Source: a virus
Lineage: Duplodnaviria; Caudoviricetes
Reading direction: 5' to 3' (one strand)
Virus record (IMG/VR): IMGVR_UViG_3300032294_001820
Coordinates: 1-63,242 of that record
DNA length: 63,242 nt
A program made the position numbers and the translations under genes. The notes below the pieces were generated by a model that saw only the letters and a list, made by a program, of their open reading frames with translations, ran no database searches and was not told the origin of the DNA. Below, piece by piece: positions 988 to 53,251 of this stretch; positions within the stretch are counted from its first letter, which is position 1, and every line of letters begins with the position of its first letter.

Positions 988-1586
988 GATTGCAATGCAA
1001 AAAGAATAAGCCTTGTACCTACTGCGTATCCATTTGATATGGATGCGTAACCTAATTGAATACTTGTTAAGTTCGTAGAGTTATCACGCCACAAACCACC
1101 AAAGGTTGGATATAATGGAACTGTAATTTGGTTTGCTCCAAATGTATTTGCAACCCCTTGAATTGTTCTGTTTTTTCCTGTGGAAGCATCTATGTTAATG
1201 TCAAACATAGTCATCGAATTACTTCCGTTGTTAGGAGCAAGAAATATACTTGTTTGTGCATTTGAACCAACACTTGATGCAGCACCTACATAAGAATACC
1301 TTGAATCATACACATTTGTAGCAATGCTATTAATGCGTAAAATATGTGTATCCGCAGTTCCAGCATTAATTGTTGTGCCAATAATTTTATAATACTGCTC
1401 AGTATTGCCATTTAAACCTGTAATACTTATTGAGGTTTGAGCCCCTACTAAATAAGTAACTCCTGGAATTGGCACAGCAGGTAAAGCAGAAACAATTCGT
1501 ATATCACGAATTTTAATCATAATACCTGCCAAACTTGTAGGTACATCAACTAAACTCGGACCTAAAACATTATTATCAGTTACCAT
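984..1586 (-). CDS. Putative tail fibre / receptor-binding protein
   Basis: Beta-rich T/N/G/S composition. The C-terminus (GGLWRDNSTNLTSIQL...GTRLILFA) resembles phage fibre tip domains. Confidence 0.55.
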   Translation of the reverse strand: MVTDNNVLGPSLVDVPTSLAGIMIKIRDIRIVSALPAVPIPGVTYLVGAQTSISITGLNGNTEQYYKIIGTTINAGTADTHILRINSIATNVYDSRYSYVGAASSVGSNAQTSIFLAPNNGSNSMTMFDINIDASTGKNRTIQGVANTFGANQITVPLYPTFGGLWRDNSTNLTSIQLGYASISNGYAVGTRLILFALQS

Positions 1587-3238: not shown

Positions 3239-5347
3239 TTATTGGCAATTACAGGTTGAACAAAGTTTTTTCAAGTAATTCAGCACATCCCTTTGATTCT
3301 CAAAAGTGTTTTCGTTATCAAGGTATTGCTTTACTGAAATCAAATACAAGTAATTCTGAATGCACTCGTTATCGCAAATGTTTACATTGCAGAACTCCTT
3401 AATACTACAATAAAGCCTATTTCTGTACTCGTTAATGCAATCGTCAAGGAAACAGAAATTAGTATAAACCTGAGTATCGCAATACTTTTCATCCAAACTA
3501 TTCTCAGATACCTCAGTCCAATAGTTCTGCCAACCACCTGTTGTTAATGGCGTAATTCCTGACCTACTCTGAATGCACTGAAAGAATCTTATCGCACCAG
3601 TTCCATCAATTAGGCAAACGCAGTCATCAACTTGGTATGCAATATCCGTTCTGAATGTAGGAACATTACACATTGTAAACTCGTAATACCCTCCCTGAGA
3701 AACAGGAAAAGTAGTAAAAGGTGCTAATGGATTTACCGAAGCAGGATTTATTAATATGTCGTATGGAACAACGGAGGACAAGAACTGCTGATTACCGTCT
3801 GGAAGTGTAACGGTAACTTTGCGGTACAAATTGAAGTCTGATTGACTATGCCCTGGCGTATATCCAAATAAGGAACTATCATTGAGTTGAATTTCAACGC
3901 AATCCCGTCCTTCGGCAAAGTTGAGGTCGAGTATTGTTTCATAATCACATTCTTGTCTTTTGATGGTAAGGGTTTGATCATTGCACTCAATACAATCAGC
4001 AGGGTAGTATTTAATCAGTTCTACATTCGCCCAATCGGAACTTGCACCATCATTTAAGTACAGGTCGCCAATAAGTAATGTGTTTGGTCCCGAAGCAAAT
4101 GTATTTACATATCGAACAAAAGGGGTAATTGCAGAACCAGCACCACTTTGCCATCTAATTCCTATATCATGCCATTGACCCGGAGGTGTATATTGAGTAA
4201 AGTAAGGAATTGCAGGATTAAAAGTTCCACTTCCAGAAACAAAGAATCTATCAAGGTGAACTTCCTCATTGGCTTTAATAAGGTGCAAAGGATTTTGAAC
4301 CCTTGCTTTGCATTTTAGCCAATATCTTTCGCCATTTGTAACAGAAATAGGATTGGCAATATCTCCTTGCCAAATAATACTTCCAGTAGTAGGCGAAGTT
4401 GCAACAGGCGTATTTGGAACAGGTCTATTGGTATAATCAGGAGGACTTGTAATTGTTGTGCGAAGTGCTGTTCCAGCAACAGGATTAACGGTAAAAGTAA
4501 ATGCGGTTAAATCTCTTGCAAATATTCCTGCTGCATTAAATTGTCCTTGGGTAACATACCCTGACATCGTACCATTATTGAAATTGGTAAACAGATTAGG
4601 ATTAAAACAAGAGGCATACTCTGTTGTCGCAGTTATATTGCAAAAACAGTTAATTAAAGCTGAATCGTAATTGATATATATACCAAAGTAGTCATCGGCA
4701 TAGTCATACGGTAAACTAACTTCAAGCTCTGTTGGACTAACTAAGGTATAGGTTACTCCTGCTGTTGGTTGGGTTTCATTAAACTCTAAACCCTCACATT
4801 CAGTTTTAAACAATACTCTTACAGGACCAGTGCATTGTGGGCTTTGACCAAGGCTAAACCGAGTATTTAACAAGCCCGAACCTGTTACATTTATTAATGG
4901 TTCGTCAAATTTAGCATAGCATTTGTTTGGCCATCGAGCATCAAACCTGCAAACCTTAATGCTTCTGTTGGGTTTAGAACATGGAGTAGGCTCTCCTCCT
5001 CCAGTATCTGCCCCATAGTCAGGGTCAGCCTCATAGTAAACGGTAAATTGCCAAGAACCGCACCTGTCATATCCGCAGTCAGTAGCAGTAACCTTCAGGG
5101 GAATGTATAGAACCTGTCCGGCAATAACGGTCTTGGTAAGTGCAGTAGTTCCTGATTCAGCAAAAACAGCAGTCATTCCCTGTTCATCAGCAATGCTTAA
5201 TTGAACGGCTCCTGTGTAAGTAGGTGTCGCAGTGGTATCAATAACCAAGGCATCATTAACCAAGGTTTCAATACCTATCGTTAGTACGGCACCGGTATTC
5301 TGAGGGTTAAATCCTACTAAATCTTGTTCACACCTTGTATTAGCCAT
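3239..5347 (-). CDS. Cys-rich tail hub / fibre-like structural protein
   Basis: 702 aa with Cys clusters at both ends and a central beta-sandwich (carbohydrate-binding-like) segment, NPNLFTNFNNG...YWLKCKARV. Confidence 0.55.
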   Translation of the reverse strand: MANTRCEQDLVGFNPQNTGAVLTIGIETLVNDALVIDTTATPTYTGAVQLSIADEQGMTAVFAESGTTALTKTVIAGQVLYIPLKVTATDCGYDRCGSWQFTVYYEADPDYGADTGGGEPTPCSKPNRSIKVCRFDARWPNKCYAKFDEPLINVTGSGLLNTRFSLGQSPQCTGPVRVLFKTECEGLEFNETQPTAGVTYTLVSPTELEVSLPYDYADDYFGIYINYDSALINCFCNITATTEYASCFNPNLFTNFNNGTMSGYVTQGQFNAAGIFARDLTAFTFTVNPVAGTALRTTITSPPDYTNRPVPNTPVATSPTTGSIIWQGDIANPISVTNGERYWLKCKARVQNPLHLIKANEEVHLDRFFVSGSGTFNPAIPYFTQYTPPGQWHDIGIRWQSGAGSAITPFVRYVNTFASGPNTLLIGDLYLNDGASSDWANVELIKYYPADCIECNDQTLTIKRQECDYETILDLNFAEGRDCVEIQLNDSSLFGYTPGHSQSDFNLYRKVTVTLPDGNQQFLSSVVPYDILINPASVNPLAPFTTFPVSQGGYYEFTMCNVPTFRTDIAYQVDDCVCLIDGTGAIRFFQCIQSRSGITPLTTGGWQNYWTEVSENSLDEKYCDTQVYTNFCFLDDCINEYRNRLYCSIKEFCNVNICDNECIQNYLYLISVKQYLDNENTFENQRDVLNYLKKLCSTCNCQ

Positions 5348-5993
5348 TTCTGTTTTCTATTGTTGATTCAACCACTCCAATTGTATTTCTATTTCCTTGG
5401 CAATCGCATGGACAAATATCCTCCAACGCTTGTTTGTAAAGGTCATTTACAGCCTTCCAATCTTTTTTCAAGGTCTTAAACTGCAATATCTCGTCAATAA
5501 GAAACAATCTCATGAACCTTTGATAGCATGGGTCTTTGCAAATATCGTCAACACAGGCAATATCTAAATTGCAATAAACCTCACTCGCACTCAACAAGCA
5601 TTTTTGTTGGTCGCAGGTAGCATTATAGGAAAAAACAGTTGTACTACCCTCGCAACTAAATATACCCTCCTGTGTTTCGTATTCGAAAATATAAGTAATA
5701 ACACAATTGAAATCACCACAATCATCCTCTAAGTTTATTCTGAAAGGAATATAGTATTGATTATCAGGGTTAATGATAAGGTTGTAGTTGTTTGTGTATC
5801 CACTTTGTCCAGGGAACTTTATTTGGGTACATTCGCTGTCAAAACTTACTATTCTATTCGTGAAAGGAAAGTCAGGACTTACATCGAACCGTATTAACCC
5901 ACTTAAAACCACATCGGTATTTGCAGGAATATACCCTACATTGTATTCTGCCTGAGAAAAACCAAGGGTATCACATATTACTACTTCTGCCAT
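5340..5993 (-). CDS. Cys-rich tail-associated protein
   Basis: 217 aa. Its C-terminal Cys/helix pattern resembles the end of 3239..5347. Confidence 0.55.
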   Translation of the reverse strand: MAEVVICDTLGFSQAEYNVGYIPANTDVVLSGLIRFDVSPDFPFTNRIVSFDSECTQIKFPGQSGYTNNYNLIINPDNQYYIPFRINLEDDCGDFNCVITYIFEYETQEGIFSCEGSTTVFSYNATCDQQKCLLSASEVYCNLDIACVDDICKDPCYQRFMRLFLIDEILQFKTLKKDWKAVNDLYKQALEDICPCDCQGNRNTIGVVESTIENRNG

Positions 5994-6006
5994 ATACCAA
6001 AATTAA

Positions 6007-7053
6007 TTAATTTTCACTTACACCCCATATAATATCCAAAACGAAATCTTTCTTTTCTTCGCCATAAACCAACAGAAAACTAACCTTAACAGAGTTTATA
6101 CCCTTTATTTTGTTTGGAATGAAAGAAAATTTAATTGTTTTGCTGTCATATCCACCTATCTCAAATGGTTGTGCATCCGGTCTTGAAACAACAGAAATTA
6201 ATTCTCCTCCTGTAATCGTAGCACCCAAAACAGAAATAGCCCTATCGCTTACAGCATTTATCTTTATTTGTGCCGTAATGAGTTCAGGAGTATCAATTTT
6301 GCCTATTTTAAGACAATCGCCAACTAAATCAGATATTTCTTTAACAGGAGTTCTCGCTTGGCCATTTATTTTTATAGGCAAAACGGAAATGCTAAAAGGC
6401 AAATCAGAGTTATCGTACCCCTCAACTTCAATGTTTATTTTAAACTTAGAGGTAATATCTATCCCTCCAGCTCTGTAATTTACACACAAAGCAGATTTAA
6501 GTGGGTCAATCCCTGATATAATATTTACTGCAACGGTCTTTGTTACAGATTTACCTGGAGCAATTACGAATGGCTGAAAAGAGCCAAAGATAACGCAACC
6601 ATGTATATTGCAATTGAAACTAAGTGCTTGTACTTCATATTCGCCCGTATTTTTTAATTCAATATTGTGGTCAAATGCTTGACCAATTTTCAGCGTTCCA
6701 AAGTTAAGGCTTTTTTCACTTATTTCAATACCTGCCATAAACTCAATAATCTTAAACTCAACCTTTTCTACCTTGTCCCCAGATACAAAATCCACCGAAA
6801 CAAACACCTCATTCGTAGAAATATACCCTGCTTCAAAACCAATAATACATACCAACGCACCCTTCTTAAACGGAACTTCACCTATTGAAATGCCATTTTC
6901 ACTTATCCAATTGTACATCGGCAACAACTTAAAATGCTTGAAATCAGCATCTTTTACATGGATAAATACCTGCTCCTCCAAAGATTCTCGGATAACTACT
7001 ATCCTATCCTGCATTCCTGCATGAATTATATTGCTATGTGGTTTGATTGTCAT
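6007..7053 (-). CDS. Ig-like (ASH / choice-of-anchor D type) domain protein
   Basis: SLNFGTLKIGQ...IELKNTG...FVIAPGKSVT motif typical of ASH-type Ig folds. Confidence 0.55.
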   Translation of the reverse strand: MTIKPHSNIIHAGMQDRIVVIRESLEEQVFIHVKDADFKHFKLLPMYNWISENGISIGEVPFKKGALVCIIGFEAGYISTNEVFVSVDFVSGDKVEKVEFKIIEFMAGIEISEKSLNFGTLKIGQAFDHNIELKNTGEYEVQALSFNCNIHGCVIFGSFQPFVIAPGKSVTKTVAVNIISGIDPLKSALCVNYRAGGIDITSKFKINIEVEGYDNSDLPFSISVLPIKINGQARTPVKEISDLVGDCLKIGKIDTPELITAQIKINAVSDRAISVLGATITGGELISVVSRPDAQPFEIGGYDSKTIKFSFIPNKIKGINSVKVSFLLVYGEEKKDFVLDIIWGVSEN

Positions 7054-7057
7054 TGTC

Positions 7058-10000
7058 TTAATTCGTTTTAGGTTTTTGTCCGTATGCTAACTTTCTTTCC
7101 TTCCACAAAAATCTACGATTCATTAACTCCGAAGCCCCTACATCAAACTTCTCCGGTGCCCCTGCAAGGAATGTATCAAAGAAGTGGTCAATAGCAATAG
7201 GGCTAATCCTAACGCCATTCCTTTCAAGTTTTTTGCTCAGATTAACAGAATACTCAGGGGTAAATTTATTTTTAAGCAATGAAGGGCTATAAGGCTTTCC
7301 TGTTTTTGGATCAACAACCTCATTCATAATTGCATTCCTAAGCATTTTGCCTCGAATATTTTCTGGCAATAGTGGATATTTACCAAAGAAGTTTTTGTTT
7401 GCTATCCTTTCCAATGGATATTTTATCAGTGGGTTTAGTCCAGAAATAGCAGACATTCCCCTGTTAATCCACTCTTCTTCTTTTCTTTTTGTTTTTCTTT
7501 CTCCTGTTTCTGGGTCAATATCTGAAAGATAGGTTTTATCCGCAAGGTTGAAAGTCATCATTTCAGAACCGCTTGAAGTTAGCAGGTCTTTCACTATTCT
7601 CTTTATTTCTTCATCGGAAAGTTTATCCTTTATCGCCTCTCCAAATGCTTGTCCAGAAGCCCTTCCAATAGAGTTAAAAATAACAGGTAGCCCACGAATA
7701 GGGATTGTAACAAAATCTGCCTGTACGCCTTCGCCTTCAATTTCTCTTTCTATTGGAATTATCATGTTTTTCCACTTGGAGTTTTCATCCATGTCGTCAT
7801 ACATTTTCTTTTCTTCATCATCATCTGACTTTAATGCCATTGCTAATCCTGTCATAAACGCAGGAATTGTAAAAACAGCAGCGTTTCTTGCTGAGAAAAT
7901 CAAAGCATCTTTTCGTTCCTTAGCCGAAGCCCCTGCATTTACAGCATTCATCATTCTGGAAATATCAGTCATGTTCCCTTTTACCGCAGCACCAAGGAAA
8001 GGAATCATCACAGAAGCAGCCCTCATATTCGGTGGAATTTGCTCAAAGTTTGGACTGCCTATATTGTTAAGGATTTCATCGTTTATTTCCTCTATCGCAT
8101 TTTCCAACTCAGCCTGAGTTAGTCTTTTTTTGCTATGCAACTTGTCAATATAGCCACCAATATAGGTATCTAATCCACGCCTAACACCTGCCTCTGTGCC
8201 TGAAAGTTTTATATTCCCATAGATTTTATGGGAGTTTTCAAGAATCTTACTGATAGTATTGATTATATCTATTAGTCCATCAACCGTTAGCCTTGTCTTT
8301 TGCCTTGCACCAAGCATTGCCTCTGAAATTGCTTTAGCGGTTTTAGGGTTGCCAAGGATTGTTTGAGTTCTCCTTTGAACTGTTTCTAAGAATTTTGCAT
8401 CCTCGATTTCATTTTGGGTTCTACCTGATTTTAGTTTATCGGTAAAGTAGTTCATGTAAGTACCCTCTGAGTAAGAAGGAGATTTCCTCCACGCCTCATA
8501 TTCCTTAAACATAAAATCAGGAGTTATGCTTTTAAGACCTAAAGCATTTCCAAGTTTAGTGTTTAACAAATTACCAATGATACTTTCAACAAGAGCCTCT
8601 GAATATAATACAGGAACCTGAACAACAGAAGCAACTCTTTCGGTTATATTTGCTCCTGAACCAAGTCCAGCCTTTGAAGTAAGCGTACGGACGGTATCAA
8701 TAACAAAGTTTGTGGGAAGGAATGTAACACTCGCTGATGTAGCCGCTATCTTAAACCAAAATGAACCAAACTTTAGCACTTGTTCAAAAGCACTTAATTC
8801 AGGTTTGGTCATTCCATCAATAGCCTGTTTTAATTTTTCATCAACCGCAACTCTTTGCTGAACTCCATCTTTGTAGTATGTAATTATAGCCATACCGCTT
8901 GGGAGTTTTTCTCCATCCTCTAACCTCTTAAAGTAATCGTTGTTGGTATCTGCATCAATGAGCCTATCAACATCTTCCATATACCCTTGTCTTGCAACTT
9001 GATATTGAGAAGCATTAATGATATTTAATGTTTTGTTAAGCGGTGAATGCAGTTCTAATCCAGGTTCGGATAGAGAATCCATTAATTCCTCATATTCCTG
9101 CTGAGTTATATTCCCTTGATTCCTTGCATCAGTAATCTTTTCTGTTGCTAAATAGTAATATGAATCAACATCAATATCACCGTTTTGCATCATTTTGTAA
9201 AATATCTCAACAGTCTTGTCGGCATCCGCAGCATTCTTAGGTGTATCAACCCCTGTTATCTTTTTAATAACACTTTGCCCTTGGGCATTAGTCCTGTCGT
9301 ATTCCGTGCCTGTAATTACATTTCCTCTAAAATCTCTCTGTACTACATCAAATGGGATATAGAACTCATTCTGAGCCTTAATAGCATCGTACCTATCCTG
9401 TGTAAGCACTCCGGCATCAACTAAGTCTTTTAGGTTATCGTCAAAAACTTGTTGCAAATCATCCCCTGCCTGAGTGAACTTATCAAACATATCTGCACCT
9501 ATTTTGTTTCTAAGGTCATTAAGTAGAATATCAGCATTTGTTTCTGTTATTCCACCTGTTGTTCTCCTTACAGGCCTCTTCTTTAATAAACCTTGATTGT
9601 AAGCCTCTTGGTTGGCTTTGTCCTGTATAGCCCTATCAATAATCCTTCTGTATATCAAATACTTTTCAAAGTCAGGAAGATTGCTTTCAATAGGTTTTAG
9701 AATTTCTGATATTCTCTCCATGTACGGCAAAGCCAAAGACCTTGCTTTCCCACGAAGTTGTTCCATAGCCCTACCAAGTGGTAATTCCCTTGTTCTATTG
9801 TAGGATGAACCTGGAGTTGTGCCTATCATTTTTTCGACAAAATTCAACAGTTCTTTAGGGCTATCTAATTTCTGTCTTAATTCAGCAGTTTTCCTTTTTA
9901 CAGCAGTCCAAAATGGCTCACTACGAGAAATGAATGGCTTACCTTCATCCATTTTCTTTTCCATCTGTCTTGCAAGTTCCTCTTGTTCTTTTGTATAAAT

Positions 10001-13000
10001 AGGAGCCTGTGTTTTGTTTGGCTGTCCGGCAGTTCCGATTTGTCCTTTATTATTTCCCGAAGGAGAAACAACACCCTCTGCAAGTTTGCGAACACTATTG
10101 ATTATGTTTACAATATCGTCTTTATCGGGATTCAATGATGTTTGACCTGATTGTGCCAACATTTGATTAACCTCTAAGATAGCATTGTCAACTACCTTTT
10201 TTATTTGAGAGGCTACCCCTGCACTTGATAGTTTAGTTTGCTTTAACAGTATCTGTAAGTTCTTCCAAGCGATTTGAGCAAGCAATGATACCTGTTGTGG
10301 GTTAAGGTTCATTGTAGCCTTGCCCATTTCTTTTTTGAACTGCTGTATTAAAGAATCTCTTTCAGACTTTAAGGTATCAATATCAGATTTATCTAAAGCC
10401 TCCGTAAGTGCCTTATAATTCCCATCATTTAGAAGGAATGCCTTAAACTTCGCAGGGGTATCGAGGGTTATTTCTTGCCCACCGATTTTCAGGGTTTTGC
10501 CATCGTAGATTCCTGCTTTTCGGGCTCTATCTGATAAGTCTTGGCTGTTATCGAATGCCCTTTTGAGTTCCTTGTTAGTCGGCTTTGCGAGTGCGAGTTC
10601 ACGCCCTTTTTCTGGGGCTTTTTCTATTTTCTCAACTTGTGCTACATCTGTGGCGTTGATAGGGGTGATGGTGGGTTGGGGAGTGGTGGGAGATATTAAT
10701 TCTGTTATTTCTGCATCAGACAATCCAAGCGATTTCAAATCTTTTTTTGCCGATTCCATTTCTAATTCAGCATTTTTAATTTGATTCTTCCTACGCCTTT
10801 CGTTTACACTATTTACGCTAACATCCCTACCTTCTAACTCTCCACCAACTGAAACATTTAGATTTCCTGCTGATTTATATACTCTGCTTTCCCAATCTTC
10901 TTTTACTTTCTTGGCATTATTATATTGCTCTACAAGTTTCTTCTTTGCTTCTTGGTATGTTCTTGCCCACTTCTTATCGAATGAAGATTCTTGGTATCTT
11001 AATTCCCTTTCTTCATCTATGGGTAGTGGTTCAGCATTTTTAGCATCAGAAACTAATTTGTCAAAATCAACGCCTTTGGTTAATTCCTCTATATTGCTTA
11101 AATCCTCAACTACCTCCCCTTTGGCTTCCGTGGCTGTGGCTTCGCCTTTACCTTGTTGGGTAGGGCTTTCAGGTTTTGCTTGGGGTTTTCCTTCCGCCAC
11201 TTCCGGGCTAACTCCGGCTTTTGGCTGAACAGGAACTTTTGCTGTGCTTTCGATTTGAACGGCATTTTGTCCTCCTTGTGTTTTCTGTCTTTCTTTTATT
11301 TCTTTTACCTTGGCTTCTATCATTGGTCTAACACGGTCAGCATTATCTTTAGATGCCTGTGTTGCTTTATTATCCTCCATAAATCGAGGACTATTAAACC
11401 AATCTTCTGCGGCTTTTAATGTTAGTGTGTCTTCAATATTATCAGGAAGATTACCATTATCTTTAATCATAGCCATGGTATATCCTGTACGACCACCAAA
11501 TTGTTCATACCCTACTATTGCAACAACCCATGTATTATTTTTTGAATCCTTTTTTCTATATACAACAACCCCGTTATCAAACAATTTGCTTGTTTCTGTT
11601 GGCGTCCTTACATCTACTGCATTGTATGTTGATGGTTTAAACCCTCCATCCGCCTTTGCTGTTTCTATATTTTTTGCTACATCTTCTTCCACATCCGCCA
11701 AAGCCTTCGGTTGTCCCTGAACTTGTTGGGGTTGGGAGGAAGGTTTAGAGTATTTCTTTATATCGCTACTTGACAATAAAACAACCTCATTTGCAAACCT
11801 TGAACCTTTAGGGTACTTAAACGCATCAAACCCTTTTGCTTTCAATAAATCAAAAATCTTCTTGTCAATATTAGTCCATTTATCTTTTGATTTGCGTGTG
11901 TCAAATACGAAGTCAGGACTTTTAGAAATTAGGGCATCAATTTCAGTATCCCCACCTATATAGATTTTGCTTTGAGGAACTTCAATCTCTACAACTTCTT
12001 TTGCATCTTTTGAAAATACATCAGGAGTTTCAGTGTAATTACCGCCTTCTTCTTCGCTAACTATATTTTCATCAAAGAAACTAATTGGATTATCTATATC
12101 CGTTAATCCCTCCCTTGAATAATGAGTCAGTTTTACAACAGGTTCGTTTTTAATATCCTCCGCAACTACTTCCCCTTCCGCATTGGCTTGGGCTTGCCCT
12201 GTTTCTTGGGGACGCAATTGGGTACTTTCTTGCCCGACTTGACCTTGGTTCCCACCATCTCGTACCCCTTCCAACATGGGGACTTCTTGTTTGCCTGTTT
12301 CATTTTCTTGTATGGTTAGTTGTTGTTGTGCTGATTGTGGAGTTACTATAACCTCCCCTGAACTCGGTAGTACATTAACACCTCCTCGTACCCTACGGGC
12401 TTGCCTTATACTTTCCCCTTGTCCTTTCGGAGTTATCGTGGCTTGACCTTTAGGTTCTTGACCGGCAGGTAATGTCTTGACACCCTCCCTTACCGCAGGA
12501 ACCCTGTCTTGAACTGAACCTGCTTCTACTTCCTGAATGAACTTCTGACCTTCGGTATTCGCCTTGTCAATATCAGCAAGCATTCCCGACAAAATATTTA
12601 AGGTAGCACCTTTTTCAGCATCTGACAAAGCGTTGTTTCTAATTACTTTTGGGAACAACCCATTAGCCCATTGATAAGCACCATGTAACGCATCTGGACT
12701 AACCATAACCCCATCTGCAATCTTATCAAATATAGACTCCAATTCAGAAGTCATTTCATTTAGTGGATTTGTTTCAGAAGGTTTATTGTCATTGAAATAT
12801 GTTTGGGCTTCTGGAAGATTTGCAACCTCGTATGGCGAAGGTGTTACTATTGTCTGGCCAGATGAAGGAGTTCCTCCGCCTCCCATTGGAATAGCCTTTT
12901 TATCCTTTGCTGTTTGAGTTCTTTCTGGCAATAGACCTGCAACTTTAGAACCGCCCTCCGTTAAAAGTAACTGATTATCTAACGCCTGTAACTTATCCTG

Positions 13001-14578
13001 AACAAGAGTTTCAGCCTTATTAATATCCTCTAACTCCGCAATCGCCTCTTGTTGGGTTATTTCTCCATTCTGAACCTGTTGTCTTATTTTTGCTCGTTTG
13101 CCTGTTAGTGCGGTTAATACTGAACCTAAAACAAAACCTGTTGCACCTCCACCCTCTGCACTCTCATATAAACCACTTGTTAACCTTTGAGCCTCGTTAT
13201 AAGTCTGTCCTATTCCGGCATTAAGAACCAACTGCTGTAAGGTTTCCTGTATGGCTTCCTCAGCACCCTGAACACCGCCTTGCTTGAAAGCATCTATAAC
13301 AACATTCGTTACAGGTTTCCCAAGTCTTGCCATTAACCTTTCCAATGGAATAGCCTCCAAAGAACCTGCGAACAAAGCCGTAGGTATTATTGAACTTGCT
13401 ACTTCGTCCTCAGTTGTATTCCTTAATGATTCCCAAGAATTACCTGCATCTTTAGCATTTTCACCGGCTGTAACTCGTTCAAGAACATAAGCGTCCTTAT
13501 CCATTGAGTTAGCCATTTTGTGCAATTGTCGTGCAGCTTGTGTTTCTGCACCAACCATTTGAAATGCACCTGCAACAGAAGGTCTGCTAAATAATTGCTT
13601 CGCACCATTGGCTATTAATTGTCTATTAGTTAATGCCCCTCTGCCAAGTTTCATAATGCCACCTGCCGGATTTAAGCCTCCCTGAACCATTATTGAACCA
13701 ACTTGACCCAATGCCGTTGCAACCGTTCCTGTAAGTCCACCTGCGTATTCAGGGTTTCTATAAATGTCTTTTTCAGCAAAGTTTTCTAATCCCTTCCCTG
13801 CTTGATAAATCCATGAATCTTCAGGTTTAGAAAGCATTGAATAACTACCCTCTAATGGAGTTCCTTTAAGTGCATTGACAATTTTATTATCAAGACTATA
13901 TCCTAATTCAGAAATTCCCCTTAACTCACTTCCAATACCACCGATAAGTCCTGCCTCAAATTCACCAAGTTTAGTAACACCAAATTGATATGGATTAACC
14001 TCAGAACTTTGTGGAGCAGAAACGGGAATTACCGATTCTCCACTTACCCCAGTTACCTGTGGCTGAACTCCTGCCATCTGTGGCTTTTCGGAAGCAACAG
14101 GAGGCTTCGCTTCTGCACCACGAGTATCCGTAATTTGAAATTGCCCTGCACCAAGCCCTTGACCTTGTGGCATTCCTCCCTGAACCTGTCCTGCCTGTTG
14201 TTCAATCGGTGCTATTTGCGTTTCGGCAGAAGTGGCTTTTGGTTGGTTGGTTGGAACATTAGAAACAGGAGGTAATACCGGTTGACCAGAAACAGGTGTA
14301 CCCATCTTTTTTATTTCTGCAACTTCCGGTATATCTTCTGCTATTTCAGGCTGTGTCGGGAATTGACCAACTTGCAAAACAGAGTTAAATTCATTTTCGT
14401 TAGGAACCCCTTTTACAATGTTTAATTCAGCAGCAGTCTTTAGTCCACTATAAACAATTTTGGCATAATTATCATCTCGTATTTTGAGATTGAACGCCTC
14501 AAATGATGTTTCAGGCTGAACAACACCTGCCCTGACAAGTGAATCGTAATATGCTTTTTTTTTACTTTCGTCTGCCAT
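7058..14578 (-). CDS. Giant polyvalent internal virion (ejected cargo) protein with ART-like and LPD38-like regions
   Basis: 2506 aa. G/A-rich hydrophobic helices, an ART-like module near 11755-12140, and a C-terminal LNPLIKYPLERIANKNFF...ISPIAIDHFF segment resembling LPD38. Confidence 0.7.
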   Translation of the reverse strand: MADESKKKAYYDSLVRAGVVQPETSFEAFNLKIRDDNYAKIVYSGLKTAAELNIVKGVPNENEFNSVLQVGQFPTQPEIAEDIPEVAEIKKMGTPVSGQPVLPPVSNVPTNQPKATSAETQIAPIEQQAGQVQGGMPQGQGLGAGQFQITDTRGAEAKPPVASEKPQMAGVQPQVTGVSGESVIPVSAPQSSEVNPYQFGVTKLGEFEAGLIGGIGSELRGISELGYSLDNKIVNALKGTPLEGSYSMLSKPEDSWIYQAGKGLENFAEKDIYRNPEYAGGLTGTVATALGQVGSIMVQGGLNPAGGIMKLGRGALTNRQLIANGAKQLFSRPSVAGAFQMVGAETQAARQLHKMANSMDKDAYVLERVTAGENAKDAGNSWESLRNTTEDEVASSIIPTALFAGSLEAIPLERLMARLGKPVTNVVIDAFKQGGVQGAEEAIQETLQQLVLNAGIGQTYNEAQRLTSGLYESAEGGGATGFVLGSVLTALTGKRAKIRQQVQNGEITQQEAIAELEDINKAETLVQDKLQALDNQLLLTEGGSKVAGLLPERTQTAKDKKAIPMGGGGTPSSGQTIVTPSPYEVANLPEAQTYFNDNKPSETNPLNEMTSELESIFDKIADGVMVSPDALHGAYQWANGLFPKVIRNNALSDAEKGATLNILSGMLADIDKANTEGQKFIQEVEAGSVQDRVPAVREGVKTLPAGQEPKGQATITPKGQGESIRQARRVRGGVNVLPSSGEVIVTPQSAQQQLTIQENETGKQEVPMLEGVRDGGNQGQVGQESTQLRPQETGQAQANAEGEVVAEDIKNEPVVKLTHYSREGLTDIDNPISFFDENIVSEEEGGNYTETPDVFSKDAKEVVEIEVPQSKIYIGGDTEIDALISKSPDFVFDTRKSKDKWTNIDKKIFDLLKAKGFDAFKYPKGSRFANEVVLLSSSDIKKYSKPSSQPQQVQGQPKALADVEEDVAKNIETAKADGGFKPSTYNAVDVRTPTETSKLFDNGVVVYRKKDSKNNTWVVAIVGYEQFGGRTGYTMAMIKDNGNLPDNIEDTLTLKAAEDWFNSPRFMEDNKATQASKDNADRVRPMIEAKVKEIKERQKTQGGQNAVQIESTAKVPVQPKAGVSPEVAEGKPQAKPESPTQQGKGEATATEAKGEVVEDLSNIEELTKGVDFDKLVSDAKNAEPLPIDEERELRYQESSFDKKWARTYQEAKKKLVEQYNNAKKVKEDWESRVYKSAGNLNVSVGGELEGRDVSVNSVNERRRKNQIKNAELEMESAKKDLKSLGLSDAEITELISPTTPQPTITPINATDVAQVEKIEKAPEKGRELALAKPTNKELKRAFDNSQDLSDRARKAGIYDGKTLKIGGQEITLDTPAKFKAFLLNDGNYKALTEALDKSDIDTLKSERDSLIQQFKKEMGKATMNLNPQQVSLLAQIAWKNLQILLKQTKLSSAGVASQIKKVVDNAILEVNQMLAQSGQTSLNPDKDDIVNIINSVRKLAEGVVSPSGNNKGQIGTAGQPNKTQAPIYTKEQEELARQMEKKMDEGKPFISRSEPFWTAVKRKTAELRQKLDSPKELLNFVEKMIGTTPGSSYNRTRELPLGRAMEQLRGKARSLALPYMERISEILKPIESNLPDFEKYLIYRRIIDRAIQDKANQEAYNQGLLKKRPVRRTTGGITETNADILLNDLRNKIGADMFDKFTQAGDDLQQVFDDNLKDLVDAGVLTQDRYDAIKAQNEFYIPFDVVQRDFRGNVITGTEYDRTNAQGQSVIKKITGVDTPKNAADADKTVEIFYKMMQNGDIDVDSYYYLATEKITDARNQGNITQQEYEELMDSLSEPGLELHSPLNKTLNIINASQYQVARQGYMEDVDRLIDADTNNDYFKRLEDGEKLPSGMAIITYYKDGVQQRVAVDEKLKQAIDGMTKPELSAFEQVLKFGSFWFKIAATSASVTFLPTNFVIDTVRTLTSKAGLGSGANITERVASVVQVPVLYSEALVESIIGNLLNTKLGNALGLKSITPDFMFKEYEAWRKSPSYSEGTYMNYFTDKLKSGRTQNEIEDAKFLETVQRRTQTILGNPKTAKAISEAMLGARQKTRLTVDGLIDIINTISKILENSHKIYGNIKLSGTEAGVRRGLDTYIGGYIDKLHSKKRLTQAELENAIEEINDEILNNIGSPNFEQIPPNMRAASVMIPFLGAAVKGNMTDISRMMNAVNAGASAKERKDALIFSARNAAVFTIPAFMTGLAMALKSDDDEEKKMYDDMDENSKWKNMIIPIEREIEGEGVQADFVTIPIRGLPVIFNSIGRASGQAFGEAIKDKLSDEEIKRIVKDLLTSSGSEMMTFNLADKTYLSDIDPETGERKTKRKEEEWINRGMSAISGLNPLIKYPLERIANKNFFGKYPLLPENIRGKMLRNAIMNEVVDPKTGKPYSPSLLKNKFTPEYSVNLSKKLERNGVRISPIAIDHFFDTFLAGAPEKFDVGASELMNRRFLWKERKLAYGQKPKTN
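11110..11265 (-). CDS. Nested alternative-frame small basic protein (MPFKSKAQ type)
   Basis: Hand-translated MPFKSKAQQKFLFSQKPELARKWRKENPKQNLKALPNKVKAKPQPRKPKGR* (51 aa), preceded by AAGGAGGACAAA. Confidence 0.7.
   Translation of the reverse strand: MPFKSKAQQKFLFSQKPELARKWRKENPKQNLKALPNKVKAKPQPRKPKGR
12166..12303 (-). CDS. Nested alternative-frame small basic protein (PCWKGY...VPNCVP type)
   Basis: Hand-translated MKQANKKSPCWKGYEMVGTKVKSGKKVPNCVPKKQGKPKPMRKGK* (45 aa). Confidence 0.7.
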   Translation of the reverse strand: MKQANKKSPCWKGYEMVGTKVKSGKKVPNCVPKKQGKPKPMRKGK

Positions 14579-14586
14579 TGTTATTT

Positions 14587-17500
14587 CTATTGACCAAATG
14601 TAAATGGTTGTCCTGCTGATTTAGTTGACTCCTGCAATGTTTTTGCCTGTAAGACATCATCTGCAACTTTGAAGTTCTGAGTTATCGGGCCAATTGAATA
14701 AACCGTTTTTGATTTTCCGGGAACCGTTTGAATTCCAGATGATTTTGGCTCGTACTCAATGGTAATTTTTTGTTTTACAAACAACTCACTTCCGGTAGGA
14801 ACATCTTTTGAATCCCAAGGAACAAGTTTTCCATCAGGTGTCATAAGTACAATTTCCTGACCGACTAAACTACCTCCTGCTGCTCTTGTCGAAAAGTTAG
14901 TTTCATCTAAGCCAAAATCTGTCGGGTTTGAATTTCTGAAAGACTTGGTTTTTTCGTCATAAACCATATACTCCCCAAGCAAAGAAGGTTGTACTTTGAA
15001 ATTATACGGCTTAACATTTACTGGTTCAAATCCAATATACTCTTTTGTAATTTCACCTTGGTCGGAAATGCCTCTGAATATATTTTTAACAGCACCCTGT
15101 AAAGCACCAACTCTTTGTTGACCTTGCTGATTAGCCTTGTTTATTTTATCCAAAGCATCTTTTGTGCCACTAATAATACTATCACGCTGTTGGTTTATTC
15201 TTTCGTAGTAAGGCTTATTAGTAGTGGTTGCCCCTGAATTTACAATGATATTAGTATCGCTCTTACGATTCTCCGTAACTGTTCCTTGGCTATACTGTCT
15301 GCCAAATAAAGCAGCAATACCTCTGGCAATTCTTAATTTAGCATCTTCAACATTCTCTCCGGGAAGAACCAATTGTTCTGCTGCTGTTTTTTCTTGGTCA
15401 AAAAACGGCTGAACAATACCATCCATAACCTGTGGTAATGCAGCCTCAGTATATTTTTGAGTATACAGCCATGTATTAAAGTCAGGTGCTTTATCGCCTA
15501 AGTCTAATTTTACGGCTTCAAAAACCTTTTGATCTTCCGGTGTATAGTTTTTCAATTGCTCCGGTGTAGGAATATAGTCAGTTGGTTTTAACTTACCCAT
15601 ATTTTCCTGCTTGAATTTCTCCCATTTATCCGCAGTAATAAACTGTTGCTCTAACTTGTTTAAGTCTTCGCCACTTATTAATCCATCAGCATAAGCACCC
15701 GCACCATTCATGAAGTTAGTTGCAGCCCTAACGCCTTCGGGAGAAAAGTACATAGTAGTAGATTTTTCTTGGGCGTTTTTTAAGAAATCTTTTGCCCTAT
15801 CAGCCGTTTGGTCAATACTCTTTGCAATGCCATTGTATTTGTTTTCTATTTCAGCAAGTTTACCACTTTGCTTTAGGTTTCGCATAGCTATTTGCCTATT
15901 GCCCCCAGCCTGTTTAACAGCTTCGTTAACTACACTTGTTATTTCATTAGTAAAATCACCTCTGAATCTTTGAATATACGCCCCTGTTTTTATTTCAGGA
16001 ATTTTAAGTTGCATTATATTGCTTTTGGCTTCGTCAAGTTCTGCTTGTGCCCTTGCTTTTCGCTGTGCATCGTAAGCCGCCATTGGGAACTGTGCCCCTG
16101 CACCTGAAAATATCGGGTCGCCCCAAGCAGTACGGCTTTCAGAAAATGGTTGATTGGGATAGTAGTCTTCATTCTTCAAGTCAGGCATAGCAGCCTGTCT
16201 ACGAAGTTTGCGAGCATAGACATCATCATCGAATCCTGAACCACCTATTTCGATAAGGTCTTCAATAGACTTGCTTTTTACGCCTTTTTTGTCAGTGGTT
16301 TCTACTACTTGCCCCGGCATCACACGAACAAACTCACTTCCTGCACCAAGGTTAATTACACCACCCCCAACTATTCCCGGAGTAGAACCCGGAGGAGGAG
16401 CAGTTCCACCACCTCTTGTGTTTGCAACTCCTATTTCACCGCCTGTTGTTTGAGTGCCTATTGTTTGAGTGCCTGTTTGAGTGCCTGTTTGGTTGGTATT
16501 TTGCGTAAGTCCGCTATCAAATGTAGTAGCAGGAGGATTATTTGGGTCAAATTGAAAATTCTGAACACCATTTACACTATCGCTTATAGTACCCGTTTCC
16601 GTTCCTGTCGTTCCATCTAATGTCATCCCTGCATCCTCAAATGAGGAAATATCGTTTTGATTTTCTTCGTTAAACCCGAATAGTGATTTTAACTTCCCTA
16701 ATACGCTCATTTTTTGTTTTGGTTGTTGTACCGCTTGTGTATTTGGTTGCGTTACCGGTGTACTATTAACTCCTTGTTGATTTGCAACCGTTTTAGCCGC
16801 TACATCCTGAGCTTTAATCGCATTAGGGTCAGTATATACTCCAGGCTCAACATTGTCAGCAATAGCCATCATTTCGTTCTGACGATTGCCAGAAACTCCA
16901 CCACTAACACTTGGTGCTTCCTCTTGAATTGCCAAGGCTTGTTGTGGAAATCCTTGCGTTCCTAATCCTCCTTGGATTGTTTTAGGTGTTGCTTGCGGTG
17001 TACTTGGCAATGGCTCACTACCTAAAGTTCCAACATTTACAAGCGGAGGCAAAGGAACTTTACTTGTAGTTTCGTTAGGAACAGGCGTTTGCGGAATAGA
17101 CTGTTTAGGCTTTGGCATTACAGGTGCAGAAGCAGGTACTTGCTCTGCCTGTTTTTGCATAAACTCTACCTGACCTTGTGGGGTAGAAGGAGGAATTATA
17201 GGTGGTGGAGGCGGCGTTTGTGCTTTTTCAGGGGCTTGTTTAGTTGTTTCTTGCGACTGTGTGACTGTGGGTTGCTGTTTAGATTCTCTACCATAATCCA
17301 TAAACTCACGCTCACTGACACCAAGTTCAACAGGAGGAAATTCAGAATTTAACTTGTCCTGTAATTCCTTTTTCTTGTTATAAAGAATACTTTCAAACCT
17401 ACTGCTTTTTGAAATTGTTGGGTGATTTTTTAACTCTTCAACCTCTTTATTGTATTCAGATACTCTTTGATTTCTTAGTTGTTGTTTTTTTTCTTGCTCT

Positions 17501-17964
17501 TTTTTTTCGTCTTCGGTTAATTGCTTTGCAGGAGCAACGGTTTCAGTAGTGGTAGGTTGTTTAACTTCTGTGTCTTTTGTAAGAGGAGGAGGAGAAGTTC
17601 TTTGAACAGGAACATCTTCAGTATCTTCCTCTGTATTGTTTTTATTGTCGCTTTCCGGGAAAAATTGATTAATTAAATCCTTTACCTTTTGTGTATATGA
17701 ACCCTTTGATTTAGCAAGAAACTCAACATCCTCTTTTGAGTATCCTGAATTTTTTCTACTAAGAGTGGGAATTACCTTCAAAATCCCCGCCTCTTTGTAT
17801 TCAGGTGTGTTTTCTACACACGATTGACTTTCATAATCCCAAACATATCCTTCAGGACAATCTCCTTTACGAGCTTTAATCTTTTCGCATTCTTTCGTAA
17901 TAGGATTCCATGAATACCCCTCTGGGCAGTCGTTTGTGCTACTTGTATTTCTTGGTTCTGCCAT
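14587..17964 (-). CDS. Internal virion / ejection protein with disordered P/Q/T-rich N-terminal half
   Basis: 1125 aa, located between the small ejection-like protein and the giant cargo gene. Two N-terminal CPEGYxW...C repeats. Confidence 0.6.
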   Translation of the reverse strand: MAEPRNTSSTNDCPEGYSWNPITKECEKIKARKGDCPEGYVWDYESQSCVENTPEYKEAGILKVIPTLSRKNSGYSKEDVEFLAKSKGSYTQKVKDLINQFFPESDNKNNTEEDTEDVPVQRTSPPPLTKDTEVKQPTTTETVAPAKQLTEDEKKEQEKKQQLRNQRVSEYNKEVEELKNHPTISKSSRFESILYNKKKELQDKLNSEFPPVELGVSEREFMDYGRESKQQPTVTQSQETTKQAPEKAQTPPPPPIIPPSTPQGQVEFMQKQAEQVPASAPVMPKPKQSIPQTPVPNETTSKVPLPPLVNVGTLGSEPLPSTPQATPKTIQGGLGTQGFPQQALAIQEEAPSVSGGVSGNRQNEMMAIADNVEPGVYTDPNAIKAQDVAAKTVANQQGVNSTPVTQPNTQAVQQPKQKMSVLGKLKSLFGFNEENQNDISSFEDAGMTLDGTTGTETGTISDSVNGVQNFQFDPNNPPATTFDSGLTQNTNQTGTQTGTQTIGTQTTGGEIGVANTRGGGTAPPPGSTPGIVGGGVINLGAGSEFVRVMPGQVVETTDKKGVKSKSIEDLIEIGGSGFDDDVYARKLRRQAAMPDLKNEDYYPNQPFSESRTAWGDPIFSGAGAQFPMAAYDAQRKARAQAELDEAKSNIMQLKIPEIKTGAYIQRFRGDFTNEITSVVNEAVKQAGGNRQIAMRNLKQSGKLAEIENKYNGIAKSIDQTADRAKDFLKNAQEKSTTMYFSPEGVRAATNFMNGAGAYADGLISGEDLNKLEQQFITADKWEKFKQENMGKLKPTDYIPTPEQLKNYTPEDQKVFEAVKLDLGDKAPDFNTWLYTQKYTEAALPQVMDGIVQPFFDQEKTAAEQLVLPGENVEDAKLRIARGIAALFGRQYSQGTVTENRKSDTNIIVNSGATTTNKPYYERINQQRDSIISGTKDALDKINKANQQGQQRVGALQGAVKNIFRGISDQGEITKEYIGFEPVNVKPYNFKVQPSLLGEYMVYDEKTKSFRNSNPTDFGLDETNFSTRAAGGSLVGQEIVLMTPDGKLVPWDSKDVPTGSELFVKQKITIEYEPKSSGIQTVPGKSKTVYSIGPITQNFKVADDVLQAKTLQESTKSAGQPFTFGQ

Positions 17965-18713: not shown

Positions 18714-21700
18714 TTATACTAAAGGTTTCCAATAAATTCCGGAACTCACAATCTTAAAATCCCCACTTCCACCAAAGGTTATTTCGTAAACAATTGCCGT
18801 TCCCTGCATTCTATTGTCGTTTCCTGTAATTATTCTCCTACCAATGTACTGCTCAAAAGCACTTCCGTAATTCCTTAAATCAGCACCATTGATAAAACAT
18901 TGAATCGTTCCTGCCTCCGCTTGTTGAACATTATCAAACAAATTTACCCTCGTAGGAACCTGACTTGAACTAACCCTGATACCCTGAAACTCTTTAGCCA
19001 ATATCTGATTCTTAGCACTTGACTGCCAAACTTTAGCCTGAACAACAGCATTATTTATCCTATCCCCTGTATCTAACAAGTAAGTACCTGCTTCATCACC
19101 ATCTATCCACCTACCCATTCCGTAAGTCTTATTGTCAAAGCTCAGGTATTGGTCATAACGATATGAATACCTGCCATTCCAAGCCTGATTCTTTTGGCTA
19201 AACACAAACAATTGAGTTTCCTCCCTTGTATTCTGTATCTGAACCATATACTCTTCGTGCTTAGTGTCGTAGCATGATGTAATCCAAGTAGCATATCCAT
19301 TGCCAAAAGCATTCAAATACTGAATTATCTTAGCGAAATAGTTGAATTTCCTTGCAATATCTAAGGCTTCATTACCATTGAACAAATAAGCACTTGTCTT
19401 ATTCATAAAATACAATGAATTATTATACTCAGCCCTTGACCTCCAAGACTCCTCATTCATACCTATCTCTCGGCTAATCCAATACTCGCCACCGATAACC
19501 TTACCCTCAGTTACTAACCCCATTGCTATCTGCTCACCTGTTGCATCCCTAATAATAGCATCCTCAGTAAGCAATAAACACATACCCCTTTCGGTAAAAG
19601 CATATAGGTTATTACCCTTGTTTCCTCCCAATGCAGACCAAGCAAACTTGATTTCTCCGGTTTGATCATCCAAGTCATAAACATTTTGGGCAAGGAAAGT
19701 CCTGATACCTGGAGAATCTACTCTGGCAATTTCACGCTTTAGGCTATAAGCATCCCTTGTGCAAAACTCTGTTAATTCTCTAAATCCTGTTGTTGGTTTA
19801 GTTGTCCAAAAAGTAACATTCTGGATGTGTAAATAGTCAATATTGAATTGAGGTTGGTATCTGTAACCTCCATATCTCCAATAAATCCATTCATCGGGGT
19901 AGTCAGACTTATAGTTGTCATAAATAATACCTGAACCACCACAGAAGTTATCGTCCTGAACCGTTGTTTCCCATTCATTAGGACGCATAATATAGTTTGT
20001 CACAGGGAAGAATTTTCCCATTTGATAACTTGGGGGGTCTGTTATTGGTGCTTCGTAGTTGTATGGCAGGTGAATCCGGCTTTCGCAATTGAATAAAGCA
20101 ATCATTTGGCGTAACCACCTACTTTGCAAACTACTGCAATCTTGAATTTTGTTTCCACCACCTCTGGCATCCTGAGTAATAAACATTCTTGGATTAACCT
20201 GAATCTCATAGTAAGGCAAACCAAGGTTAAGTGGTAGCGGAGAACTTGTACCTGTATTTGCTGGATTTCCACCGCCATTAGGAATTTGTCTATCAACAAA
20301 ACAGGCTGTATCATCACCGGTATAAGCATCGCCCCCAAAAGCCTTAACAGGAACTTCATTATCGTATTTGATAATAACCTTGCTACCTGTAATGGGGTTG
20401 ACGGGAACTGTACCGCAATTAAATACAATAGAGTATATGTTTGATGGGAATGTTCCAAATGTAGTTCTATAAAAACCTGAAATTGTTACTCCATCTTTAC
20501 TGCCTCCGGGTGTGTTAGTGCCTATTACATACGGCAAAGAGGGAAGCATTAAGTCAACATTGAAATTTGAAACATTATCGGCATTTAACCAATATTGAAC
20601 AGTTCCATCAGGTAACTCTATTTGAATTATAGAGTTTATGGTATTATTGTCAATTGTCGCAACAGTTGTATATGTGTTTGGTGTCCAAGGTCTAATATCC
20701 TCCCACCTTTCATCACCTGCAAGGTTAAAGAATATTGAAGAAGGCGTGTATGTTCCTACCCAAGACCGCAGTTTCTGATATGCACCTGTATCAAAGTATG
20801 TAGTTACATCACTTTGTGGAACATTTGCCAAGGTATCAACAATGTTAATATTGTACCAAGGTTCGTGGAAACTCTTTAGGTCAGCACTTGGGTATTTGTT
20901 ATCACAAGCGTTTGAACCAACTGATTGAACATTATAAACAGCCGTACTTGTACCTAAAACAAAGAATTGATTACCTCTGTCGCCTAAATACTCACTACCA
21001 ATACCACTTGTGTCTGTTCCTGAATTATTGGCACTCCGGAATTCGTTTAATACAAAACTTGCCCTGTTTATATTCAAATTTGCTTCCCATCCCGGAAAGC
21101 CGGCATTTCTCCACTTGCCAAATTGAACATACCCACCTGTACTCGTAGGGTCAGGAGTAAGATTAATCGTTGCGTTATCCTCATAGAATCTCGGATACAA
21201 ACACATATCAATATGGTCTTCCTGAAGCCCTGTTCTATTTTCTCCGTGCGGAACTTCAGGGAATATACCAACAGGTGAAACTAATTGAGCCTCATACCTT
21301 GAACCTGAATTAGTACCTATCTCGTTAATTACCTGTTGAGAAATAAGACCAGCCCTTGCACTCGCTTCGAAACTATAAAACCATAATTTATCCGTTGCTT
21401 TATATGCAGGGTCTGTTGCATTGCCACTCGGATTCGGATAAAGATAGTAACCACCTATGCCTTGAAACACAACTCTGCCAGCAGGTTTAGTTCTAAGGAT
21501 TGAAAATGCCTGAATATATGAAGGCAAAAGACTGTCATCAATACCATTTAATGCAACTCCTAAAGCGAAATATTCAGGTGCAAAACCAGCAGGGTGAAAA
21601 TCCGCAAGTGAACTGCAATCATTCTGAACCCTTGTATTTATTACATAATCGTGTCCGGTTACGCTTGGGTCTCGTTCACTTATTGGAGTTAATGGTTGAT

Positions 21701-49019: not shown

Positions 49020-49071
49020 AGTTGTTGATGTTCATATGTGAATTATGGTAGTATTGCGTATATTTATTGTT
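49018..49071 (+). other. attI-like landing pad B
   Basis: IHF-like box (CATCAACAACTTA on minus, 49018-49030), N23, TTGCGTA, N6, TTG^TT. Confidence 0.6.
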
Positions 49072-53236: not shown

Positions 53237-53251
53237 GATTATTGGTTTAAA

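Follow-up and report, generated by a model that had tools for sequence, protein, structure and literature searches.

Can a complete gene lie inside another gene, on the same strand but in a different frame, and be read for a protein of its own, and which of the two frames is then the older? These questions are raised by IMGVR_UViG_3300032294_001820, an IMG/VR record of a virus of the Caudoviricetes that we analyzed as a whole (63,242 bases, referred to here as the window; estimated 90% complete and 39% GC). Nearly all of the long open reading frames (ORFs) in the window are on the minus strand, and one of them, at 7058..14578, is a giant of 2,506 amino acids (aa). A first-pass annotation had noticed that an apparent linker in this giant virion gene is, in an alternative frame of the same strand, a complete small ORF, and both the ORF list and the frame offset agree. 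The embedded gene of 45 codons spans 12166..12303 on the minus strand (ATG at 12303..12301, TAG at 12168..12166), lies wholly within the giant ORF, and is in the +1 frame relative to it [(14578 − 12303) mod 3 = 1]. Its product is small and basic, the 45-aa peptide MKQANKKSPCWKGYEMVGTKVKSGKKVPNCVPKKQGKPKPMRKGK, followed by the TAG stop. From the evidence presented below, this ORF is probably a genuine gene translated from its own ATG, and the linker that the giant frame has at the same place would be its by-product.

Family of the embedded ORF

The small frame is open for just 49 codons, with many stops on both sides. A search of 5.8 billion proteins for homologues of near the same length returned 29 candidates at an E value of 0.001 or lower (as low as 4e-10), and all 29 are stand-alone proteins of 32 to 71 aa. 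They share one layout: Met, a short Lys-rich leader, a PCWKGY-x13-PNCVP module, and a Lys-rich tail. The module follows the pattern [S/G]PCWKGYEM[V/I]G.K.K.G.KVPNCVP, and within it the motif P-C-W-x-G-x-E-x2-G-x-K-x-K ... V-P-N-C-V-P is invariant and present in the window peptide, which has all 14 invariant and all 7 near-invariant columns of a 30-sequence alignment. Its leader of 8 residues and basic tail of 13 residues are inside the family range, so that the plan is complete from the first residue to the last. The stand-alone proteins are like the window gene in length class, leader, invariant motif, and Lys-rich tail; they differ in that their genes sit between other genes, whereas the window copy is entirely inside another gene. 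Judged by its predicted product, the embedded ORF is a full-length member of an uncharacterized family of small basic phage proteins. The CWKGY...VPNCVP motif of small basic proteins, which the first-pass annotation had put forward, is real and widespread, and the stand-alone homologues that it had asked about exist.

The module itself is abundant. Using tblastn with the small peptide, we found the motif in 351 GenBank phage records, mostly cyanophages, with haloviruses and Methylophilales phages as well, and relatives are encoded in at least 572 of 600 scanned IMG/VR stretches. The 63,242-base record holds one copy, the embedded ORF. The peptide matched eight PHROGs, all of unknown function (best E = 5e-9), with each match confined to about 30 residues in the interior of a longer profile; the motif is found within PHROGs 9737, 4359, 22379, and others, likewise of unknown function. 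Neither the small protein nor its profile matched Pfam, NCBIfam, or PDB sequences. AlphaFold2, run with the 30-sequence alignment, predicted a beta-hairpin of residues 14 to 22 and 25 to 32, with the conserved Cys pair at the hairpin ends and a predicted local distance difference test (pLDDT) score of about 90 in the core (mean, 75.4). Foldseek against BFVD returned just other carriers of the motif (best E = 5e-3) and no informative fold match, and the matches in the ESM Atlas were unnamed clusters of 36 to 45 aa only. Among the papers listed for the motif, small phage genes, and overprinting, none is on a PCWKGY...PNCVP family. Several stand-alone family genes (L094, L180, L131, L150, and others; numbers with L denote loci) are overlapped by antisense open frames of 120 to 216 codons.

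Recurrent nesting in giant genes

The nested arrangement recurs outside the window. A DNA-pattern scan aimed at the small-gene type gave 119 loci, 107 of them with small ORFs, and a scan with the shadow peptide, i.e., the giant-frame reading of the embedded gene, added more. The first recurrence was L079/L082, with a 39-aa ORF nested in an ORF of more than 2,148 codons. The nested copies form four lineages: A (the window and L003), B (L079/L082, L089, L199, and L222), C (L148, L168/L219, L102, L220, and the partial L221), and D (L217). They are always on the same strand and in the +1 frame of ORFs that range from 1,335 to more than 2,500 codons, and every nested-bearing record has one family copy. 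None of the 10 unique nested DNAs, which come from the four lineages, has lost its ATG, motif, or stop. The small frame is therefore not one that is often broken in relatives, which the first-pass annotation had held out as the mark of a spurious gene. Independent assemblies show the same arrangement, as do four lake-water runs, each from a different study.

The giant proteins of the four lineages had no similarity beyond the nested segment, by either BLASTP or hhalign with shallow profiles. We considered that the four giant genes might have arisen from one ancestor and set the idea aside for lack of any similarity past the nested segment, although the shallow profiles could miss remote homology. 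The L079 giant protein has ResIII and AAA_34 helicase domains, and that of L148 has a weak ART-PolyVal match and is followed by a 2,085-aa DdrB-ParB protein. In both L148 (3828..4364 and 4366..10623) and L219, a gene for a 178-aa ferritin-like protein and then the 2,085-aa DdrB-ParB gene come after the host of the embedded gene. The lineage C host ORF ends about 65 codons past the embedded gene, and a ferritin-like gene between giant virion-type genes is unusual. Relatives of the window giant gene itself are L002, L003, and L004. The giant gene of L002 (2,542 aa; 87% in the best segment) is without the whole block that holds the embedded gene.

Selection in the two frames

We made the comparison of the two frames that the first-pass annotation had suggested, using the Nei-Gojobori method on a 93-nucleotide (nt) core in 21 pairs of 7 sequences. 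In the small frame, the ratio of nonsynonymous to synonymous change (dN/dS) was 0.03 to 0.19, or the synonymous proportion (pS) was saturated, in all 21 pairs; in the giant frame, it was 0.8 to 2.3. Inside the nested ORF, the giant and small frames had dN/dS values of 1.47 and 0.15 in lineage A and 2.09 and 0.06 in lineage C, while in lineage B the giant-frame value was undefined (0 synonymous and 3 nonsynonymous changes) and the small-frame value was 0. Outside it, the giant frame is conserved, with values of 0.40 and 0.26 for the lineage A upstream flank and of 0.16 (upstream) and 0.54 (downstream) for the lineage B flanks. Because the flanks and the nested ORF differ in this way, constraint switches frame exactly at the small gene.

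Variation within lineages has the same form. From the ATG to VPNCVPK, 11 of the 14 variable sites are at the third codon position of the small frame. Codons with synonymous changes only outnumber codons with amino acid changes by 10 to 2 in the small frame, versus 2 to 11 in the giant frame. For at least 13 of 17 changes to be synonymous at a synonymous-site fraction of 0.198, the binomial P is 7e-7. Among the alleles on lake-water contigs, the small frame has five codons with synonymous changes and five with changed residues, mostly to residues known in the family, while in the giant frame all 10 affected codons change the residue. These substitution patterns show purifying selection on the predicted protein of the small gene, with the giant frame there seemingly unconstrained apart from staying open.

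Codon choice keeps the giant frame open

Staying open is itself a constraint that can be read from the codons. Of 84 unique small ORFs, 6 have no stop along their whole length in the frame that corresponds to the giant one, and all 6 are nested; this count leaves out a seventh nested copy, L168, which runs off the end of its locus. Over the 28-codon core, the same frame is open in 8 of the 84 (the 6 nested ORFs, the truncated nested L168, and one other) and in 1 of 63 longer proteins that carry the module in frame. Expressed per core, it is open in 2 of 140 nonnested cores versus 7 of 7 nested copies.

The means is the third codon position. Stand-alone family genes use T- and A-ending codons freely, whereas the window copy is recoded (wobble T of 4% versus 32%): nested cores have T at 8 of 196 wobble positions (4.1%), compared to 692 of 2,156 (32.1%) for stand-alone genes. 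The window ORF has 2 wobble T's in 46 codons, while the giant gene's own third positions are 34% T, and its GC content is 52.9% compared to 39.6% for the giant gene. Avoidance of wobble T keeps the giant frame open because a T in this position creates a giant-frame TAA, TAG, or TGA when the next codon is one for Lys, Arg, Ser, Asp, or Glu. Taken together, substitutions and codon usage show that both frames are maintained, the small one for its putative protein and the giant one for continuity. Wobble A is also underused (17% of wobble positions in nested cores versus 37% of giant-gene third positions), which stop avoidance does not require. This low level of wobble A may reflect selection for an acidic or neutral (Glu/Gln) giant-frame linker rather than a Lys-rich one.

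The giant-frame shadow of the embedded gene spans 12161..12310 on the minus strand (giant residues ~757 to 806) and is a linker rich in Gln, Glu, and Gly. The giant frame at the embedded gene reads ...QENETGKQEVPMLEGVRDGGNQGQVGQESTQLRPQETGQAQANAEGEVVAED..., and the Gln/Glu/Gly-rich stretch is ...QENETGKQEVPMLEGVRDGGNQGQ.... Its Gln and Glu arise because the Lys codons (AAR) of the small gene, when read one base earlier, become CAA, GAA, or AAA.

Edges of the conserved unit

DNA identity between the window and L003 is about 97% and stops exactly at the embedded TAG. Among the lake-water contigs, records 5 and 10 begin or join at 12166 or 12167, and records 1 and 4 diverge at 12177. Together, the L003 identity edge and the contig breaks place a mosaic (recombination) junction at 12166..12177, at the 3′ end of the embedded gene. 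At the other end, three loci of lineage C have unrelated upstream flanks and are alike from about 16 nt before the embedded ATG, and the leaders of lineages B and C are alike (CTAAACCACAACAAGATG and CTAAAACACAACCAAATG). In L222 of lineage B, both the tail and the downstream flank are different and the small ORF is intact. Because the edges of homology fall at these places, the conserved unit is a short leader plus the small ORF, which behaves as a mosaic module of gene size. At least four giant genes that are otherwise unrelated have this unit, and nothing else, in common.

Parts of 11700..12800 in the window are covered by contigs of the four lake-water runs, at 85 to 99% identity and in differing mosaic combinations, which points to a freshwater phage population whose giant gene undergoes active shuffling of modules. 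At a single locus, L168 (= L219), a strong hairpin (GGGGGUGUAACAGCCCCC, at 1363..1382; −13.5 kcal/mol, z = −2.0) stops 4 nt short of the leader.

Origin of the two frames

The two frames differ in where their relatives are found. Searching with the giant-frame block among JGI metagenome contigs gave 276 pattern matches and no relative. The shadow peptide had one match in the protein database among proteins of up to 2,000 aa (P0030, 1,976 aa), and scans with it of viral and metagenome sequences returned nested copies only. Because the small frame has many homologues outside and the shadow has none outside the nested copies, the small gene would be the older and the linker the younger of the two. 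The first-pass annotation had left it at “overprinted or engulfed” when it called the linker a by-product. The substitution patterns support a by-product, and “engulfed or captured” fits better than “born by overprinting,” as far as can be judged from sequence. On this model, a giant multidomain gene would have captured or engulfed a small gene, rather than the small frame having been born de novo. There may have been one capture followed by recombinational spread among giant genes, or several captures. No empty-site allele of the nested cassette was found, and the sequences are too short for a tree.

The host gene and its surroundings

The host gene (7058..14578, minus strand) is putatively of the polyvalent or virion-protein type, as suggested by an LPD38 domain and by its position in the late block. 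LPD38 covers residues 2259 to 2474 with 27.1 bits against a Pfam cutoff of 27 and is the sole domain found in the 2,506 aa. The gene lies in a one-directional late block, downstream of the portal gene at 30914..33175. The giant protein had no match among GenBank phages by tblastn. Phage polyvalent proteins were described by Iyer et al. (2017; PMC5512222), and in that paper the words “overlapping” and “frameshift” are absent and an internal second gene is not described. The hosts found here are like the polyvalent proteins in that they are giant multidomain ORFs in blocks of virion genes; the host ORFs of L217 and L219 differ in having no Pfam domain at all. With LPD38 in the window protein and the domains noted above for L079 and L148, the host ORFs look like phage polyvalent proteins, for which packaging in the capsid is predicted.

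Directly upstream of the giant gene are two large late ORFs on the minus strand, at 14587..17964 (1,125 aa) and 18714..23366 (1,550 aa), both without a PHROG match or a Pfam domain above the cutoff, and most structural genes of the window phage have no PHROG match at all. Elsewhere on the minus strand are three DNA methyltransferase genes (46024..46752, 49070..49822, and 55968..56999; PHROG matches with E values of 1e-44 to 6e-20), and beside them are a RecT and exonuclease pair at 52424..54130 and a DnaB-like helicase gene at 58652..60157. Two antisense ORFs on the plus strand that overlap the embedded gene, 12122..12319 and 12276..12446, were rejected as shadows of the two minus-strand frames, no homology search being made with either.

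Head association of the module

The first-pass annotation had assigned the motif to head-associated proteins. We examined the 80 best IMG/VR loci for the context of the module. Most copies are in frame within proteins of 150 to 1,400 aa, and some are small stand-alone ORFs. A Pfam scan was performed on 49 of 58 unique carriers, after near-duplicates were dropped (L041, L043, L050, L053, L057, L063, L075, L076, and L081). Peptidase_S78_2, the XkdF-type phage serine protease, is above the cutoff in 8 of the 49. Phage_portal was matched in nine (E values of 8e-10 to 5e-5), with all nine matches below the Pfam cutoff. DUF5661 (6/49), DUF6321 (6/49), and DUF3008 (2/49) were also matched. In halovirus HSTV-1, the module is in the middle of an annotated head maturation protease. 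These fusions bear out the head association for the module, but they do not do so directly for the small protein.

DUF3721 is directly upstream of the module in 11 of the 49 carriers (L007, L011, L013, L021, L031, L038, L054, L060, L067, L071, and L073). It is a Cys-containing motif of 33 residues (...MPCESH...) and stands just upstream of the module in proteases and portal-like proteins. The Cys motifs of DUF3721 and PCWKGY may form one unit, perhaps a metal site.

We offer, with low confidence, the guess that the small protein is a beta-hairpin module with Lys-rich tails that is associated with DNA, either in the capsid interior or ejected with the DNA. The guess is based on its strongly basic tails, on the prohead proteases and portal-like proteins in which the module is fused, and on the host proteins being of a kind predicted to enter the capsid.

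Expression and alternative explanations

If the embedded ORF is expressed as we propose, the small protein would be translated from its own conserved ATG by internal initiation on a long late mRNA, while for ribosomes in the giant frame this DNA would encode a flexible Gln/Glu/Gly linker that joins domains. In all lineages, the embedded ATG is at the family-typical distance before PCW, 8 or 9 codons (6 in lineage D), and in most nested copies the small frame has stops 2 to 9 codons upstream of it. The A/C-rich leader at 12304..12325 (minus strand; ...caacaactaaccatacaagaaaATG) is the putative translation initiation region and has no Shine-Dalgarno match. Window genes are mostly without a Shine-Dalgarno sequence and have A-rich upstream sequences, and the embedded start, caagaaaATG, is alike; the native host thus probably makes no use of Shine-Dalgarno sequences. 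On the minus strand nearby, there is no terminator-like site; on the plus strand, there is one promoter-like site, at the level of chance. No Rfam family was found around the embedded gene, where one subthreshold match to a long noncoding RNA was taken as chance.

A number of points weigh against this reading. The sequences are few: there are 10 unique nested DNAs, and within lineages 14 sites vary. The between-lineage dN/dS values could partly reflect a stand-alone history before capture. The start region is predicted to be unpaired in 6 of 6 loci, but this comes partly from Lys-codon composition, and the z-scores (−2.0 to +1.7) give no consistent signal. No promoter-like site was found upstream on the minus strand. 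The family is also dispensable: the complete 70,472-base genome of the closest relative, L002, has no copy, and because of this we regard the cassette as accessory. As for the head, 20 of the 49 scanned carriers are without a Pfam domain, others have DUFs of unknown role, and placing the free small protein there would be an extrapolation from the fused forms.

The absence of a family copy from L002 could also be taken to favor a silent relic, i.e., a gene that was engulfed or inserted, is unexpressed, and is intact because it is recent or because it recombines with expressed copies elsewhere. Recombination clearly moves the cassette, which is mosaic, and divergence within lineages is low (3 to 8 differences). 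We consider a relic rather unlikely, since start, motif, and stop have stayed intact throughout the unique nested DNAs of four lineages and within-lineage changes are gathered at the wobble positions of the small frame (11/14). The nested copies have also been recoded to hold the giant frame open with no damage to the small protein, which needs time under dual constraint, and the nested-bearing records have no other copy to act as a donor. The main rival is a programmed +1 frameshift, in which ribosomes would slip before PCWKGY and stop at the embedded TAG to give a truncated product of about 800 aa that ends in the module, like the proteases and portal-like proteins that have it at the C terminus. 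There are in-frame carriers with the module just 4 or 5 residues from the C terminus (L013, L020, L051, L056, L060, L071, L076, and L081), and most nested copies have a giant-frame CCC before the shift point, at which tRNA-Pro could re-pair at +1. However, TCC replaces CCC in L089 and L199, so that there is no conserved slippery site, and the codon after the shift point is ATG, GTG, or CTG, which is neither rare nor a stop. No stimulatory structure is predicted downstream, and no Shine-Dalgarno-like stimulator is present. With stops 2 to 9 codons upstream of the ATG, a shift would have very little room, and all four lineages have their own ATG at the family-typical distance, with the leader conserved. 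We hold a frameshift to be unlikely.

The segment could also act as nucleic acid instead of encoding a second protein, either as a recombination joint between modules of giant genes or as an RNA structure. No other segment is common to the unrelated giant genes, and several independent comparisons place mosaic junctions at the edges of this one. Yet it has three-base coding periodicity, and its amino acids are kept while the DNA is about 70% identical between lineages. There is no Rfam match, and the minimum free energies are −0.4 to −5.7 kcal/mol, except for the one flanking hairpin of L168. This explanation is very unlikely as a replacement for coding; a role as a recombination joint could coexist with it. 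Finally, short ORFs in alternative frames are common, and a chance open frame or an assembly artifact, e.g., paired compensating indels, might be invoked. This possibility is practically negligible, being refuted by the family E values down to 4e-10 among 5.8 billion proteins and by the occurrence of the same arrangement in independent assemblies and in the four lake-water runs. A genuine gene in the +1 frame, probably translated from its own ATG, thus stays our preferred reading.

Discussion

An embedded phage gene on the same strand and in the +1 frame has a precedent in lambda Rz1, which lies inside Rz. The two cases are alike in that a larger late gene contains a complete small one that has a start and a stop of its own. 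The window gene differs from Rz1 in that it is from a widespread family that also exists outside any overlap. Its unit is portable and recurs in giant genes that are unrelated to each other. The host segment that it overlaps is a featureless linker, and the two products are not known to be connected in function.

Documented viral overlaps are mostly attributed to de novo birth of the second frame. The evidence here points the opposite way, to an old and widespread small gene inside a giant gene, recoded for both frames. The birth of viral genes by overprinting was reviewed by Pavesi (2021; PMC8227390). As in overprinting, there are two frames, of which one is old and constrained and the other is young and biased in composition. 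The polarity of size is reversed, however: the old, constrained frame is a tiny gene, and the young one is a segment of a giant protein. Stand-alone homologues of the small gene number at least 29, and the module occurs in frame hundreds of times, so that the small gene, unlike an overprinted one, was apparently not born in place.

As a tentative idea, for which we claim no great likelihood, the leader and the small ORF may together be a portable dual-coding cassette that circulates among giant genes for capsid-packaged proteins, serving both as a linker or recombination seam and as the source of a beta-hairpin protein that acts together with the giant one. If this is true, a gene would survive as the seam of another gene, and the small protein would act with the giant protein in the capsid or after ejection, e.g., in packaging or in escorting DNA.

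Gene callers routinely discard embedded genes. If the 45-codon ORF is translated, it would be a clean natural example of capture rather than overprinting, and the abundant module to which it belongs (found in 351 phage records of GenBank and in over 570 stretches of IMG/VR) would deserve experiments. A simple test is possible, since the embedded start codon can be removed without a change to the giant protein. Translation of the ORF would also imply that the “linkers” of giant polyvalent virion proteins may hide more genes.

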